Of a DNA stretch of 4,447 bases, positions 1 through 4,447 are shown one piece after another; the first letter of the stretch is position 1; each line of letters starts with the position of its first letter. Made by a program: the position numbers and the translations under genes. The DNA comes from a virus (lineage: Duplodnaviria; Heunggongvirae; Uroviricota; Caudoviricetes). The notes beneath the pieces were generated by a model. It was not told the origin of the DNA, searched no databases, and worked only from the letters and a program-made list of their open reading frames with translations. The stretch lies in IMG/VR virus record IMGVR_UViG_2778261170_000007; one strand, written 5' to 3'.

Positions 1-471
1 CCCGTTCCGTGGCCCTTAGAAACACCACCAACGGGCTGGCTAAAATGTAACGGAGCAGCATTTTCTTCTGAAAAGTATCCCAAACTGGCAAAAGCCTACC
101 CCACCAATAAATTACCGGATTTACGGGGAGAATTTATTCGCGGTTGGGATGATGGGCGCGGGGTGGATGCTGGCCGCGCTTTGCTTAATTGGCAGCCACA
201 CACAATTTTGGACCATGCACACTATATGGAATTATGGACAGGGGACGGACTCGCCGCAGGAAGTGCACGGGAAGGCGTAAATCCAGGAATACTAGCTACA
301 TACGGTGACGGGGGAATAGTTAAAACGGACGAACCCGGTCATAAGGTGCCTTCCTCACTACGAGCTATTAGCTCTCGTAGTGTTAAACGTTATGGTGAAA
401 TTAGTGGAAATGTAGGTACAGAAACTCGCCCTCGCAACGTTGCATTTAATTACATCGTAAGGGCGGCATAA
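1..471 (+). CDS. Tail-fiber tip / receptor-binding cassette A (tail-collar domain family), 5'-partial at window edge
   Basis: Frame 1 is open from nt 1 to TAA at 469-471. Translation PVPWPLETPPTGWLKCNGAAFSSEKYPKLAKAYPTNKLPDLRGEFIRGWDDGRGVDAGR...ETRPRNVAFNYIVRAA carries the tail-collar signature (P-x-GW-x-C-NG, LPDLRG-F-RG-D-GRG). HAH motif at 214-222. Nucleotide-identical in reverse complement to 3977-4447. Confidence 0.8.
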   Translation, partial: PVPWPLETPPTGWLKCNGAAFSSEKYPKLAKAYPTNKLPDLRGEFIRGWDDGRGVDAGRALLNWQPHTILDHAHYMELWTGDGLAAGSAREGVNPGILATYGDGGIVKTDEPGHKVPSSLRAISSRSVKRYGEISGNVGTETRPRNVAFNYIVRAA

Positions 472-483
472 AAACGTTGGTTT
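1..483. repeat. Left arm of a perfect >=483-bp inverted repeat (pairs with 3965-4447); truncated by the window edge
   Basis: Position x on the + strand equals the reverse complement of position 4448-x. Identity ends at 484 (g versus a), immediately after the conserved junction spacer. Confidence 0.85.
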
Positions 484-495
484 GGGGGAAGGCTC
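456..495 (+). repeat. Conserved 40-bp inter-cassette junction (candidate recombination/crossover site), A-B
   Basis: CGTAAGGGCGGCATAAAAACGTTGGTTTGGGGGAAGGCTC: last codons of one cassette, TAA, a 10-nt non-coding spacer AAACGTTGGT, and the first codons of the next. The identical 40-mer recurs at 3027-3066 and 3466-3505 on the minus strand. Confidence 0.5.
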
Positions 496-943
496 TGCAC
501 TGCCCGTTGGTGTGCCCGTTCCGTGGCCCTTAGAAACACCACCAACGGGCTGGCTAAAATGTAACGGAGCAGCATTTTCTTCTGAAAAGTACCCAAAACT
601 GGCAAAGGCTTACCCTACTAATAAATTGCCGGATTTACGCGGTGAATTTATTCGTGGCTGGGATGACGGACGTGGTGTGGATGCCGGGCGACAATTATTA
701 TCTTCACAGGGGGATGCAATAAGAAATATTGAGGGGTTCGCAGATGGCGGGATTGGCATGTCTTTTGATGCAATCAGAGGGGCTTTTTATGATGCAGGAA
801 CACGATCAGCGAGAATGCCGAATAACACAACTACTATAGACAAAACCGATGACCTTGGATTCGACGCCTCTCGTGTCGTGCCAACAGCTAATGAAAACCG
901 TCCTCGTAATATTGCCTTTAATTACATCGTAAGGGCGGCATAA
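482..943 (+). CDS. Tail-fiber tip / receptor-binding cassette B (tail-collar domain family)
   Basis: ORF with a TTG at the conserved module start (482) and TAA at 941-943. N-terminal block of subtype A (PLETPP, YPKLAKAYPTNK), a unique variable core with no HxH, and the conserved C-terminus ENRPRNIAFNYIVRAA. No ATG or convincing Shine-Dalgarno, so the true start is uncertain. Confidence 0.75.
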   Translation: MGEGSALPVGVPVPWPLETPPTGWLKCNGAAFSSEKYPKLAKAYPTNKLPDLRGEFIRGWDDGRGVDAGRQLLSSQGDAIRNIEGFADGGIGMSFDAIRGAFYDAGTRSARMPNNTTTIDKTDDLGFDASRVVPTANENRPRNIAFNYIVRAA

Positions 944-967
944 AAACGTTGGTTTAGGGGAAGGCTC
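928..967 (+). repeat. Conserved 40-bp inter-cassette junction, B-C (variant with TTA in place of TTG)
   Basis: Differs from the 456-495 junction by one substitution (TTG to TTA); identical to the minus-strand junction at 3953-3992. Confidence 0.5.
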
Positions 968-983
968 GGCGCTGCCCGTTGGC

Positions 984-1451
984 GTGCCTGTTCCATGGCC
1001 CTCAGCCACACCTCCAACGGGGTGGCTGAAATGCAATGGTGCAGCATTTTCTTCTGAAAAGTACCCAAATCTGGCAAAGGTTTACCCAACGTTAAAATTA
1101 CCTGATTTACGCGGTGAGTTTATCCGTGGTTGGGATGATGGGCGAGGGATTGACTCTGGTCGCTCTATTTTAAGCGAGCAAGGATATGCAACGGAGGATC
1201 ATGCTCACGGATTACCGTCAAAATCAACCGTAGCAACTGACCGCTCAATTAATTTCTACTTTGACGAGGCATGGGCTACTAGTGGTAATACGGGAGTTAT
1301 CAGATGGGGGAACACAAGCGATGCAGGATTGCCAGCCCCTAATTATGGAACTTTTAAAACATATAAACAGTCCGTAGCTAATTTAGGTACTGCTGGCTTA
1401 GAAACCCGCCCTCGTAATGTTGCATTTAATTATATTGTGAGGGCGGATTAA
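984..1451 (+). CDS. Tail-fiber tip / receptor-binding cassette C (tail-collar domain family); conserved module actually begins at 954
   Basis: The conserved module start codon is TTA at 954-956 (TTG in other cassettes); the first possible start is GTG at 984. The frame is open from 933. Subtype-B N-terminal block (PSATPP, YPNLAKVYPTLK), HAH motif at 1200-1208, C-terminus ETRPRNVAFNYIVRAD, TAA at 1449-1451. Confidence 0.7.
   Translation: MPVPWPSATPPTGWLKCNGAAFSSEKYPNLAKVYPTLKLPDLRGEFIRGWDDGRGIDSGRSILSEQGYATEDHAHGLPSKSTVATDRSINFYFDEAWATSGNTGVIRWGNTSDAGLPAPNYGTFKTYKQSVANLGTAGLETRPRNVAFNYIVRAD
987..1147. repeat. Left arm of a 161-bp perfect inverted repeat (pairs with 2333-2493) in the conserved 5' block of cassette C
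   Basis: 10-mer by 10-mer comparison of 987-1147 with the reverse complement of 2333-2493 shows identity, bounded by mismatches at 986 and 1148. Confidence 0.85.
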
Positions 1452-1456
1452 TTATA

Positions 1457-2068
1457 TCAACTGGCTGTAGAAAGTTGTTTTTCAGGCCAGTTGAGATCTG
1501 GTGCCGTGGTTAAATCCATCGCGTTCAGCTCGTCTATATAATCTAGCACGGAGTTAAGCTGCGTGGTTTCTGCCTGCGTCAACTTCCGTCCAGCCCGTAA
1601 TTTCAACTGAATCAGACTAATGGAATCCATCGCAGTATCAATCAATGACTGACGTTTTGTTTCTGCTGCCTCTACAGCTGCACTATGTTGAGCCTCAGTA
1701 TCAACCACCCATTTCTCTCCATCCCATTTGTCGTATGGTGTTAGCGGGGCGATAGTGGTTGTATTTTCCGGATAGTCACCCAACACCGTGATTTCTTCGG
1801 GATTCCCAGTGTCAATGCTATAGACAGTTTCGCCACGATGATCTGGCACATACTCCCATGAACTTAAATCCTCTGAACGGAGAATCGCATAACCTGCTTT
1901 ATGTGAGCCTGGAGCATCCAAACAAGAATTTGCCGGAATACCAACGCCAACAGCAAGATATTCAGTTGATGCAGAAATATATTCCCGATTACCACCATCA
2001 TAGTTATAAACGATAATGTTTCCTGCCTGTATGGCTATAAGTTCGCTATTTAATATCGCATTATCCAT
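1457..2068 (-). CDS. tfa: Phage tail fiber assembly protein (Tfa; Mu U / P2 G / lambda Tfa-like chaperone)
   Basis: 203-aa ORF with a canonical ATG at 2066-2068 and TGA at 1457-1459. The C-terminal region ...KWDGEKWVVDTEAQHSAAVEAAETKRQSLIDTAMDSISLIQLKLRAGRKLTQAETTQLNSVLDYIDELNAMDLTTAPDLNWPE matches, from memory, the conserved C-terminal domain of enterobacterial tail fiber assembly proteins (DTEA..., STAPDIEWP-like end). Its start overlaps the stop of the upstream cassette (TAATGG), indicating translational coupling. Confidence 0.85.
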   Translation of the reverse strand: MDNAILNSELIAIQAGNIIVYNYDGGNREYISASTEYLAVGVGIPANSCLDAPGSHKAGYAILRSEDLSSWEYVPDHRGETVYSIDTGNPEEITVLGDYPENTTTIAPLTPYDKWDGEKWVVDTEAQHSAAVEAAETKRQSLIDTAMDSISLIQLKLRAGRKLTQAETTQLNSVLDYIDELNAMDLTTAPDLNWPEKQLSTAS

Positions 2069-2526
2069 TATGCTGCTCTCACAATATAATTGAAGGCAAT
2101 GTTACGTGGGCGGGTTTCATTCCCCCCAGATAACTCCGTTCTGTATTGACTGGTAAATTTACCATTAATCGCTCCTTCTTGGACGGCGTTATCTGTCGAC
2201 AACAGACTATCCCCCCCTCTGTCATTTGGCACCAATACCGTGTTATCCCACGCGTCCCATGACCGAATATTATGATAATGACTTCCTGTTAACCACCCCT
2301 GTATGCTTAAGATGACCCTTCCCGCATCCACACCTCGCCCATCATCCCAACCACGGATAAACTCACCGCGTAAATCAGGTAATTTTAACGTTGGGTAAAC
2401 CTTTGCCAGATTTGGGTACTTTTCAGAAGAAAATGCTGCACCATTGCATTTCAGCCACCCCGTTGGAGGTGTGGCTGAGGGCCATGGAACAGGTACACCA
2501 ACGGGCAGCGCCGAGCCTTCTCCCAA
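2068..2526 (-). CDS. Tail-fiber tip / receptor-binding cassette D (tail-collar domain family), coupled to tfa
   Basis: TTG at 2524-2526, TAA at 2068-2070 overlapping the tfa ATG. Subtype-B N-terminal block, HYH motif at 2272-2280, C-terminus ETRPRNIAFNYIVRAA. Confidence 0.8.
   Translation of the reverse strand: MGEGSALPVGVPVPWPSATPPTGWLKCNGAAFSSEKYPNLAKVYPTLKLPDLRGEFIRGWDDGRGVDAGRVILSIQGWLTGSHYHNIRSWDAWDNTVLVPNDRGGDSLLSTDNAVQEGAINGKFTSQYRTELSGGNETRPRNIAFNYIVRAA
2333..2493. repeat. Right arm of the 161-bp perfect inverted repeat (pairs with 987-1147) in the conserved 5' block of cassette D
   Basis: See the left arm. Together the two arms bracket 1148-2332, which holds the cassette C variable core, tfa and the cassette D variable core. 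Confidence 0.85.
2341..2439. repeat. 99-bp perfect direct repeat, copy 1 (cassette D 5' block); copy 2 at 2865-2963
   Basis: 2341-2439 is identical to 2865-2963 (atcatcccaaccacggataaactcaccgcg...aaaatgctgc); flanking sequence is similar but has substitutions. Confidence 0.8.
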
Positions 2527-2552
2527 ACCAATGTTTTTATGCTGCCCTTACG
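2513..2552 (-). repeat. Conserved 40-bp inter-cassette junction, E-D (most divergent copy, 3 substitutions)
   Basis: Minus-strand sequence CGTAAGGGCAGCATAAAAACATTGGTTTGGGAGAAGGCTC. Confidence 0.45.
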
Positions 2553-3040
2553 ATGTAATTAAAAGCAACGTTGCGGGGGCGCATTGATATCCATGCCCCG
2601 GTAAAATTATCCTCTGCCGTCCTTTGAGTACCCGTTATGGAGTTATCTGCTGATGCTGGAACATAATCGCTATTATCTCCTGCTTTAGGATTAGCAGGGT
2701 TTCCAACAGTTATAACAGAATCAGCAGTAGCATAAGCGATACCTACTTTGACATTAGTAGTCAGATCGACACCGTAATAATCCTGCAAAGCTGTACGAAT
2801 AAATGTTGCAGTCTGACCACTTAGCAATGAACGCCCTGTATCAATCCCTCTCGAATCATCCCAACCACGGATAAACTCACCGCGTAAATCAGGTAATTTT
2901 AACGTTGGGTAAACCTTTGCCAGATTTGGGTACTTTTCAGAAGAAAATGCTGCTCCGTTACATTTCAGCCACCCCGTTGGCGGTGTGGCTGAGGGCCATG
3001 GAACAGGCACGCCAACGGGCAGCGCCGAGCCTTCCCCCAA
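2537..3040 (-). CDS. Tail-fiber tip / receptor-binding cassette E (tail-collar domain family)
   Basis: TTG at 3038-3040, TAA at 2537-2539. Subtype-B N-terminal block, the longest variable core (about 81 aa, no HxH), C-terminus MRPRNVAFNYIVRAA. Confidence 0.75.
   Translation of the reverse strand: MGEGSALPVGVPVPWPSATPPTGWLKCNGAAFSSEKYPNLAKVYPTLKLPDLRGEFIRGWDDSRGIDTGRSLLSGQTATFIRTALQDYYGVDLTTNVKVGIAYATADSVITVGNPANPKAGDNSDYVPASADNSITGTQRTAEDNFTGAWISMRPRNVAFNYIVRAA
2865..2963. repeat. 99-bp perfect direct repeat, copy 2 (cassette E 5' block)
   Basis: Identical to 2341-2439. Confidence 0.8.
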
Positions 3041-3066
3041 ACCAACGTTTTTATGCCGCCCTTACG
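3027..3066 (-). repeat. Conserved 40-bp inter-cassette junction, F-E
   Basis: Minus-strand sequence identical to the 456-495 junction. Confidence 0.5.
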
Positions 3067-3479
3067 ATATAATTAAACGCAATGTTACGAGGACGAATGG
3101 TTACATAATTAACCCCATCACCTCGTGAAGGCCCTGCAAATGAAAAACGGGAAAATCCTGGTTGGTTAGAAACAATTTGGTCATAGTTATTGATTGAATG
3201 ACCAGACCCAATGTCGAAATTACCTCCGTAATGAGAAAAACTTGTACCATCCTGCCCTGAAAGCAGGGTACGTCCCGCATCAATCCCGCGCCCATCATCC
3301 CAGCCACGGATAAATTCACCGCGTAAATCCGGTAATTTATTGGTGGGGTAGGCTTTTGCCAGTTTGGGATACATTTCAGAAGAAAATGCTGCACCATTGC
3401 ATTTTAGCCAGCCAGTTGGTGGTGTTTCTAAGGGCCACGGAACGGGCACACCAACAGGCAATGCAGAGCCTTCCCCCAA
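3051..3479 (-). CDS. Tail-fiber tip / receptor-binding cassette F (tail-collar domain family)
   Basis: TTG at 3477-3479, TAA at 3051-3053. Subtype-A N-terminal block (PLETPP, EMYPKLAKAYPTNK), the shortest variable core (about 56 aa), C-terminus IRPRNIAFNYIVRAA. Confidence 0.75.
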   Translation of the reverse strand: MGEGSALPVGVPVPWPLETPPTGWLKCNGAAFSSEMYPKLAKAYPTNKLPDLRGEFIRGWDDGRGIDAGRTLLSGQDGTSFSHYGGNFDIGSGHSINNYDQIVSNQPGFSRFSFAGPSRGDGVNYVTIRPRNIAFNYIVRAA

Positions 3480-3505
3480 ACCAACGTTTTTATGCCGCCC
3501 TTACG
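3466..3505 (-). repeat. Conserved 40-bp inter-cassette junction, G-F
   Basis: Minus-strand sequence identical to the 456-495 junction. Confidence 0.5.
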
Positions 3506-3948
3506 ATGTAATTAAATGCGATATTTCGTGGACGGGTTTCACTCCCGCCAGTATTACCAATACTCCCTCGAGAATGAAGTGTCGGTGATGGAATCAAATT
3601 CCCTCCTGTATTTGAGGCATCAAGCCCCCGTCCTTGTGTGTATGTTTTTTTGAAAATTGTCGCCAGCTCCCATTCATCTTTTGTGTCGTAACCATCATTG
3701 GCTACAACAATATGTCGGTGCTTTTCCAGCATTCCTGTCTGAATGCTCAATAAAGCACGTCCCGCATCCACCCCGCGCCCATCATCCCAGCCGCGAATAA
3801 ATTCTCCCCGTAAATCCGGTAATTTATTGGTGGGATAAGCCTTTGCCAGTTTTGGGTACTTTTCAGAAGAAAATGCTGCTCCGTTGCATTTTAGCCAGCC
3901 TGTTGGCGGAGTGGCTGAGGGCCACGGAACAGGTACGCCAACAGGCAA
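3490..3948 (-). CDS. Tail-fiber tip / receptor-binding cassette G (tail-collar domain family); conserved module extends to 3966
   Basis: The conserved module start is TTA at 3964-3966; the first possible start is TTG at 3946-3948. TAA at 3490-3492. Chimeric N-terminal block (PSATPP of subtype B followed by YPKLAKAYPTNK of subtype A), HRH motif at 3712-3720, C-terminus ETRPRNIAFNYIVRAA. Confidence 0.7.
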   Translation of the reverse strand: MPVGVPVPWPSATPPTGWLKCNGAAFSSEKYPKLAKAYPTNKLPDLRGEFIRGWDDGRGVDAGRALLSIQTGMLEKHRHIVVANDGYDTKDEWELATIFKKTYTQGRGLDASNTGGNLIPSPTLHSRGSIGNTGGSETRPRNIAFNYIVRAA

Positions 3949-3952
3949 TGCT

Positions 3953-3992
3953 GAGCCTTCCCCTAAACCAACGTTTTTATGCCGCCCTTACG
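3953..3992 (-). repeat. Conserved 40-bp inter-cassette junction, A'-G (TTA variant)
   Basis: Minus-strand sequence identical to the 928-967 junction. Confidence 0.5.
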
Positions 3993-4447
3993 ATGTAATT
4001 AAATGCAACGTTGCGAGGGCGAGTTTCTGTACCTACATTTCCACTAATTTCACCATAACGTTTAACACTACGAGAGCTAATAGCTCGTAGTGAGGAAGGC
4101 ACCTTATGACCGGGTTCGTCCGTTTTAACTATTCCCCCGTCACCGTATGTAGCTAGTATTCCTGGATTTACGCCTTCCCGTGCACTTCCTGCGGCGAGTC
4201 CGTCCCCTGTCCATAATTCCATATAGTGTGCATGGTCCAAAATTGTGTGTGGCTGCCAATTAAGCAAAGCGCGGCCAGCATCCACCCCGCGCCCATCATC
4301 CCAACCGCGAATAAATTCTCCCCGTAAATCCGGTAATTTATTGGTGGGGTAGGCTTTTGCCAGTTTGGGATACTTTTCAGAAGAAAATGCTGCTCCGTTA
4401 CATTTTAGCCAGCCCGTTGGTGGTGTTTCTAAGGGCCACGGAACGGG
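3965..4447. repeat. Right arm of the perfect >=483-bp inverted repeat (pairs with 1-483)
   Basis: Reverse complement matches 1-483 on the blocks checked; the arm runs to the window edge and so probably continues beyond it. Confidence 0.85.
3977..4447 (-). CDS. Tail-fiber tip / receptor-binding cassette A' (inverted identical copy of cassette A), 5'-partial at window edge
   Basis: The minus-strand frame is open to the window end, with TAA at 3977-3979. The reverse complement of 3965-4447 equals 1-483; this was checked on 1-180, 177-246, 241-300, 308-427 and the 3' junction. Confidence 0.8.
   Translation of the reverse strand, partial: PVPWPLETPPTGWLKCNGAAFSSEKYPKLAKAYPTNKLPDLRGEFIRGWDDGRGVDAGRALLNWQPHTILDHAHYMELWTGDGLAAGSAREGVNPGILATYGDGGIVKTDEPGHKVPSSLRAISSRSVKRYGEISGNVGTETRPRNVAFNYIVRAA

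Follow-up and report, generated by a model that had tools for sequence, protein, structure and literature searches.

The 4,447-nucleotide (nt) window analysed here is a stretch of DNA from the virus record IMGVR_UViG_2778261170_000007 of IMG/VR (Duplodnaviria; Heunggongvirae; Uroviricota; Caudoviricetes), and we are highly confident that it represents the Min-type multiple-inversion region of a p15B/P1-like phage-plasmid of Enterobacteriaceae. The window contains eight cassettes of ~155 amino acids (aa), named A to H from left to right, and a single tail-fibre assembly chaperone gene (tfa). According to the list of open reading frames (ORFs) and the in-frame translations, three of the cassettes are on the + strand and five are on the - strand, and in terms of cassette types the order is b+ g+ a+ [tfa-] c- d- f- e- b-. 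This locus is already known. It is the p15B Min region, which is widespread in P1-like phage-plasmids, rather than a new or enlarged form of it.

An earlier reading made from the sequence alone had proposed a multi-inversion locus for host-range switching of the Gin/Cin/Min kind. Our results agree with that proposal on three grounds, namely Din-type crossover sites before the cassettes, an invertase gene and the constant S at the two ends of related arrays, and a cassette order that is permuted among plasmids with breakpoints at the sites. The sequence-only reading had also taken the locus to be a larger cassette repertoire of that kind, and this part has to be given up. All seven cassette types of the window and tfa were found at 98-100% in plasmid pMCR_SCKP-LL83 (MF510496), and the array of this plasmid was reported to match the min region of p15B with 92% coverage and 99% identity (PMC5786510). 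Furthermore, the p15B locus has been called 'the Min shufflon', in which a serine recombinase and multiple inversions give variable tail fibres (PMC6109161).

Crossover sites between the cassettes

Crossover sites were searched with a 21-nt pattern built from the cassette junctions. The pattern occurred six times in the window (0.00 expected), at positions 472 and 944 on the + strand and at 2536, 3050, 3489 and 3976 on the - strand. The complete site is 26 bp long, has the consensus GGCATAAAAACG-TT-GGTTT[G/A]GG[G/A]GAA and precedes the cassettes. Site 1 is a mix-type site (GGCATAAAAACG TT GGTTTGGGGGAA) recognized by the pattern search and by comparison with P1 cix. It is located at 465-490 on the + strand, with the TT core at 477-478, and it overlaps the stop codon of cassette A and the first codons of cassette B. 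The other five sites were located by the pattern search. Site 2 is at 937-962 on the + strand (TT at 949-950), and on the - strand there are site 3 at 2518-2543 (TT at 2530-2531), site 4 at 3032-3057 (TT at 3044-3045), site 5 at 3471-3496 (TT at 3483-3484) and site 6 at 3958-3983 (TT at 3970-3971). All six internal sites retain the TT core and the inner GGTTT bases. In addition, the sites show the inverted orientation, with two + sites to the left of tfa and four - sites to the right. We infer two further sites, 5' of A and H, ~40 nt beyond the window; the six sites in the window and the two just outside together imply an eight-site array.

The sites are fitted into the coding sequence. The right half-site opens each cassette, and the left half of the site that follows includes the cassette's stop codon. 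Within a cassette, the recombination site takes up only the first four codons and the last one or two. For comparison, cixL and cixR, the crossover points and the inversion enhancer of phage P1 were taken as annotated in the GenBank record of P1, where cixL reads ...CCTAAACC-TT-GGTTTAAGAGAA and cixR reads ...CCAATACC-TT-GGTTTAAGAGAA. The window sites and P1 cix share the TT core, 9-10 of the 12 bases of the right half GGTTTAAGAGAA and the AAAC on the inner side of the left half. Both also sit where the variable part of S begins, at the same point of the reading frame ('GLGEGS' in the window vs 'GLRELG' in P1). Moreover, the consensus of the published site table of the Din family agrees with the window sites, and the sites of prophage Phi2 of Escherichia coli EC958, ATTACCTT-GGTTTAGGAGAA and ATAAACGTT-GGTTTGGGGGAA, are almost identical to them (PMC4134206).

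Permutation of the cassettes among related plasmids

To place the window among its relatives, 24 related loci were fetched, which gave 22 distinct arrays (two were repeat fetches). All of them are on P1-like plasmids or contigs, and a few are truncated or rearranged or are broken by insertion sequences (IS). Typing by variable core, applied to the window and to the first 14 related loci, distinguished 11 cassette types (a to k). The cores are ~100% identical among plasmids, and the order and side of the cassettes differ widely. Three properties were found in every array. The cassettes to the left of tfa are all +, those to the right are all -, and types a and c flank tfa, with c directly upstream and a tail-to-tail. 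A model of inversion only, in which just oppositely oriented sites recombine, predicts exactly these invariants of orientation and of the a and c flanks.

The junctions themselves mark where the exchanges took place. At 86 junctions, the 14 nt to the left of TT track the upstream element (entropy reduced from 2.28 to 0.32 bits), and the 36 nt to the right of TT track the downstream cassette (from 3.47 to 0.91 bits). Thus, the natural breakpoints lie at the TT core and its invariant neighbours. There were 49 distinct upstream-downstream junction pairs in 14 arrays, so that different arrangements were seen between plasmids and not within one clone. Furthermore, types b, c, e, g and h were each found fused to the constant part of S in the relatives.

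The public related arrays have 2 to 10 sites, and 11 of the 22 distinct arrays have 8-10 sites. Therefore, an eight-site array is ordinary. Under the inversion model, six sites give 240 arrangements and eight sites give 10,080, or 5,040 if the two copies of type b are indistinguishable.

Genomic context of the related arrays

The related arrays are located in the P1 tail-fibre region, and the gene order is gene 16, R, the constant part of S, the array with one tfa, a 190-aa Resolvase+HTH_7 gene, lydC, lydA, lydB and darA. In these relatives, S carries Phage_fibre_2 repeats and reads into a collar cassette, and the cassettes past tfa are on the opposite strand. Both the R/constant S side and a Gin/Cin-family serine invertase gene were recorded in most of the 22 arrays. 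The invertase gene lies ~70-100 nt past one end of the array, and the constant P1-type S enters the other end. The invertase is 74% identical to P1 Cin and matches the Gin structures 4M6F and 3UJ3 (E 4e-92 and 2e-91, respectively), and the first 130 nt of its gene share ~80% identity with the part of P1 cin in which the inversion enhancer is annotated. No tyrosine recombinase was found beside the related arrays examined, which carry the serine invertase. By analogy with these arrays, the invertase and the constant S would lie just outside this window. The earlier prediction that a recombinase and a constant tail-fibre shaft flank the cassettes holds for the related arrays.

The full S protein ranges from ~560 to 875 aa among the plasmids (for example, loci L003 at 14055-15737, L024 at 7085-9664 and L001 at 4888-7512). 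This range is far beyond the differences in cassette length, so the constant shaft of S varies too, probably in its Phage_fibre_2 repeats.

Cassettes and tfa in the window

Cassette A (type b, 1-471, + strand) is an alternative tail-fibre C-terminus. It is open from nt 1 to the stop codon at 469-471 and matches Collar with E 1.2e-14; the 14 codons that precede nt 1 and the crossover site 5' of the cassette are beyond the window. Cassette B (type g, 472-943) and cassette C (type a, 944-1451) follow on the + strand, both assigned by translation, Pfam and core typing. The single tfa gene is at 1457-2068 on the - strand and encodes 203 aa. The remaining cassettes are all on the - strand. Cassette D (type c, 2068-2536) was assigned from the ORF list, translation and Pfam, and cassette E (type d, 2537-3050) from translation and Pfam. 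Translation, Pfam and core typing identified cassette F (type f, 3051-3489) and cassette G (type e, 3490-3976). Cassette H (3977-4447), known from its translation, is the second copy of type b and the exact reverse complement of A. Cassettes A and H are each truncated by the window ends and are 14 codons short.

The tfa gene sits between C and D, where the + and - groups of cassettes converge. Its start overlaps the stop codon of D by 1 nt, and a gap of 5 nt separates it from the stop codon of C, in agreement with the single central tfa and the tight packing described earlier. All eight cassette reading frames are intact, and every frame is open from the codon after the previous stop ('...NYIVRAA', stop, 'NVGLGEGSALPVGVPVPWP'). 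The cassettes share one plan, which is a conserved N-terminal block of ~70 aa, an unrelated core of 60-90 aa and a near-invariant end. The sequence-only reading had given this end as an invariant 16-aa C-terminus, and only 13-14 residues, RPRN[IV]AFNYIVRA[AD], proved to be near-invariant, with the preceding residues varying (ET, EN, SM or TI).

Searches with profile models upheld the assignment of the N-terminal block to the tail collar and of tfa to the chaperones. Each of the seven cassettes that were scanned reached 54-57 bits with Pfam Collar PF07484 (cut-off 24 bits; E 1e-14 to 2e-15), and tfa reached 105 bits with Caudo_TAP PF02413 (cut-off 22.1 bits; E 3e-30). Among the NCBIfam models, none matched the cassettes or tfa. 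In addition, the exact tfa protein occurs in at least 999 contigs and has the UniRef name TFAB_ECOLX, and the exact protein of cassette E is listed in 205 blocks of a public assembly collection.

The ORFs of 41-76 aa antisense to the conserved blocks were rejected as genes, because they recur only where the sense-strand block recurs. Those of 51-55 aa are found, for example, at 450-605, 922-1089, 2391-2558, 2905-3072, 3356-3511 and 3843-3998.

Orientation of tfa

In 20 independent arrays, tfa was co-oriented with S in 13 and opposed to it in 7 (L001, L007, L008, L015, L022, L025 and L026). The inversion model puts tfa in each orientation in half of all isomers. A scan of the window for promoters and terminators gave no enrichment, with 11 promoter-like sequences (7.4 expected) and 2 terminator-like sequences (5.4 expected). 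If the opposed tfa is a frequent natural state, most collar cassettes would fold without tfa, or tfa would have its own expression route.

The terminal repeat of the window

Positions 1-483 and 3965-4447 form a perfect 483-nt inverted repeat, and mismatches begin at nt 484, just past the TT core. Cassettes A and H are the same sequence, and thus the window has seven distinct cassette types and not eight. The eight back-to-back modules first described from the sequence, three on + and five on - with unrelated cores, are confirmed by the ORFs and translations as eight positions; as eight distinct types they are not. Furthermore, nt 1-77 are exactly identical to nt 515-591, the first difference is at nt 78, and the repeat vanishes at k=78. 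The window is probably a whole short-read contig that shows the contig-end pattern of a k=77 de Bruijn graph.

Type b at both contig ends could come from a true inverted duplication or, less readily, from a two-isomer culture, so that the perfect terminal repeat could reflect two isomers. A single inversion that pairs the site at 472 with the site farthest to the right relates the b-g and b-e isomers. We give somewhat less than an even chance to the explanation that there are seven real cassettes and that the second b is an assembly product, in which one b edge was placed at both ends of a contig from a mixture of b-g and b-e isomers. The position at which the terminal repeat halts, just past the TT core, and the k=77 pattern of the contig end both fit this explanation. 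In addition, type b is single-copy in 75 of 84 plasmids, the longest contig carrying one of the cassette proteins is only 2-5 kb in 42 of 124 index blocks, and artefactual duplication from mixed isomers is a known hazard (PMC4134206). However, a true inverted duplication of b gives an identical contig, and an assembler faced with a 50:50 mixture would more likely halt at the branch than fold back.

Duplicated cassettes are also present in assemblies labelled complete, which speaks for real duplication, although some of these look error-prone. They are type e in L015, type f in L024 and several cassettes in L014. The sites of L015 (CP088508.1) at 7788 and 8778 have an extra G (GGTTTAGGGGGA), and some of the adjacent cassettes are not intact reading frames. 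These features are typical of long-read homopolymer errors, and therefore the duplication in L015 is weak evidence. In L014 (NZ_LR882977.1), the invertase and holin block occurs twice in 3462-7837, several cassettes are repeated and there are 14 sites; either the region is truly duplicated, or mixed isomers were misassembled from long reads.

If the duplicate of b is true, cassettes would be gained and lost by recombination between inversion isomers or between co-resident P1-like plasmids, and this would explain the range of 2-10 sites in the public arrays. We consider it rather unlikely that the window offers a modest new detail of this kind, that is, a real second b showing gain and loss of cassettes in Min arrays, the above implication of the opposed tfa, or both.

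Points against the Min assignment and other explanations

Several points weigh against the assignment of the window to an active Min region. There is no read-level evidence of inversion for this particular array, and the window has no flanks, so the invertase and the constant S are not seen on this molecule. The comparison with p15B is indirect, since it was made through a secondary paper (PMC5786510) and the UniRef name of tfa. Simple co-transcription does not explain the arrays in which tfa is opposed to S (7 of 20). Finally, an IS3-family element at 8044-9929 splits the invertase gene in locus L008.

Some of these points would also be expected if the array were a static set of paralogs that no longer switches, a relic of a Min region in which the invertase was lost or became inactive. 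The window itself has no recombinase, the invertase of L008 is split, an IS1 lies within the cassette array of L007 (12235-12932), and the published P1-like plasmids include some with truncated cin or min (PMC6906374). The arrays of L008 and L007 are probably frozen. For the window we regard such a relic as improbable, because the TT core and GGTTT are preserved at all six internal sites, and all eight frames are open. Furthermore, only one of the related arrays examined has a broken invertase gene, and invertases of other prophages can act in trans on such sites (PMC4134206).

It is still less likely that cassette diversity and order arose mainly by RecA-dependent homologous recombination within the N-terminal blocks. 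These blocks, ~200 nt long, are 80-100% identical among the cassettes (for example, 1-180, 515-690, 987-1162 and, on the - strand, 3760-3933), and they are mosaic. Two variants exist, 'PLETPP...KLAKAYPTNKLPDL' and 'PSATPP...NLAKVYPTLKLPDL', and the block of cassette G is a hybrid, which suggests gene conversion between cassettes in addition to site-specific inversion. The N-terminal blocks of C and D also contain a 161-nt perfect inverted repeat (987-1147 vs 2333-2493) that brackets the tfa segment. This repeat is a possible substrate for homologous inversion, and because of it the orientation of the centre cannot be fixed by short reads. However, the sequence to the right of TT moves with the downstream cassette and the sequence to the left with the upstream element. 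Because the variants split at TT, most exchanges took place at the site and not inside the N-terminal block. Homologous exchange probably adds gene conversion and changes of copy number on top of site-specific inversion.

An Rci-type shufflon with a tyrosine recombinase, which the sequence-only reading had left as an option, would also show numerous cassettes that face both ways and are separated by short repeats, as in R64 and the Bifidobacterium Rin system (PMC6109161). It was rejected with a residual probability that is almost nil, since the repeats are not of the short asymmetric sfx type but 26-bp Din-type sites that match P1 cix and have a TT core, and the recombinase beside the related arrays is a serine invertase (Resolvase+HTH_7).

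Distribution of the array

In a megablast search, the window matched 219 plasmids, mostly ~95-100 kb in size and from E. coli or Klebsiella, and 198 of them were predicted to be non-mobilizable. The two top plasmid matches examined are IncY and IncHI1B. Matches were also found in 1825 of 5426 complete E. coli genomes. In the same search, no complete plasmid or E. coli genome covered 80% or more of the window at a single location. Meanwhile, the 111-nt e/b junction had zero exact matches in the viral, genome and metagenome contig collections, and look-ups of the exact cassette proteins returned only long P1-like contigs with other arrangements.

Near-identical arrays occur in hundreds of public plasmids of E. 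coli, Klebsiella and Salmonella. P1-like phage-plasmids are frequent carriers of resistance genes, such as mcr-1 and CTX-M, and the locus would let such an element present seven or more receptor-binding tips and so shape the hosts that it can reach. In addition, Min arrays break short-read assemblies into contigs of 2-5 kb, and fold-back or duplicated cassettes in such contigs should not be read as new architecture.

Proposed mechanism

The eight promoter-less cassettes code for alternative C-terminal receptor-binding tips of the tail-fibre protein S, and each tip is a collar domain with a variable insert. Judging from the relatives and from Gin, Hin and Cin, a serine invertase of the Gin/Cin family (Min) would be encoded just past one end of the array. 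Min would pair two oppositely oriented sites with the aid of a Fis-bound enhancer within its own gene, cut both sites at the central TT, turn half of the complex by 180 degrees and religate the ends. Each inversion would then set another cassette in frame behind the constant S at the opposite end of the array. Directly oriented sites would not be recombined, so that cassettes would be reshuffled rather than lost.

Eight sites would allow the 10,080 arrangements of the model and eight possible fusions. Since one cassette is present twice, these would give seven distinct fusion proteins. With so many fusions, a clonal population of lysogens would release virions with differing tail-fibre tips and host ranges.

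Structure of the tips

Cassette D aligns over its full length to the solved short tail fibre 9CUY (E 1.6e-17). In the T4 gp37 tip (2XGF), the counterpart of its N-terminal block is the collar region, and its closing residues, ETRPRNIAFNYIVRAA, pair with the extreme C-terminus of gp37, ENTVKNIAFNYIVRLA, as well as with the end of T4 gp12. From the alignment of cassette D and the published structure of gp37, the two conserved ends of a cassette would together make up a single collar-type domain, and the variable receptor-binding insert would separate them.

An HxH motif was observed in four of the seven cassette types, in the cores of A/H, C, D and G (HAH, HAH, HYH and HRH). It resembles the metal-binding motifs of T4 gp12 and gp37, and it is absent from the types with 'GDAIRNI' or with no such motif. 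The tips seem to fall into two structural classes or more.

Comparison with known systems

The T4 fibres gp37 and gp12 are like the cassettes in the collar region, in the C-terminal end and in the HxH motif of four types. However, the T4 fibres are encoded by fixed genes, and the inserts of the cassettes are far shorter.

The R64 shufflon (Rci) and the Bifidobacterium Rin system likewise supply one adhesin or receptor-binding gene with a choice of many C-terminal segments, which lie in both orientations. In contrast, they depend on tyrosine recombinases and short asymmetric sites (11 bp in the case of rix; PMC6109161), whereas the sites here are 26-bp dyad sites and the relatives carry a serine invertase.

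The region of EC958 prophage Phi2 is closer. It has a constant Phage_fibre_2 5' part, an invertible 3' part with a Collar domain and near-identical sites, but regions of this type have a single invertible segment of 2-3 kb, and each of its two alleles is followed by a downstream gene of its own (Forde et al. 2014, PMC4134206). The exchange of collar modules, which the sequence-only reading had inferred for this locus, was thus already described for E. coli prophages (PMC4134206). That reading had further contrasted whole collar modules with the short C-terminal tails swapped elsewhere. The invertible part of S in P1 is 1603 nt, or ~534 codons, according to the P1 record. P1 swaps a longer segment than the ~155-aa cassettes, and therefore the contrast fails for phages.

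As for P1 Cin and Mu Gin, the invertase of the relatives is 74% identical to Cin and matches Gin strongly. The sites share with those of P1 the TT core, 9-10 of 12 right-half bases and the same point in the S frame, and in the relatives a putative enhancer, judged by sequence, is inside the invertase gene, as the annotated one is in P1. However, P1 and Mu have two sites and two alternative ends of S, each with a cognate U or U' chaperone, while the window implies at least eight sites and has ~155-aa cassettes and only one tfa. Moreover, the invertase gene points away from the array in the relatives and towards it in P1.

The Min region of p15B from E. coli 15T- was described by Sandmeier, Iida, Arber and colleagues in 1990-1992. 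It reportedly has six mix sites and 240 isomers, a figure that our model reproduces. The relatives of the window and p15B Min are alike in their P1-like R and S, array, serine invertase and lyd genes in the same order. The window and p15B Min also share the same kind of sites, a single tfa ('T') and collar-type variable 3' parts in both orientations. Both have more than two sites and several alternative 3' ends, with six sites and eight cassettes seen in the window. They differ in that the window implies eight sites and 10,080 arrangements and has one type twice, whereas p15B reportedly has six sites and 240 arrangements. Since the public relatives have 2-10 sites, this difference in the number of sites is a strain-level difference.

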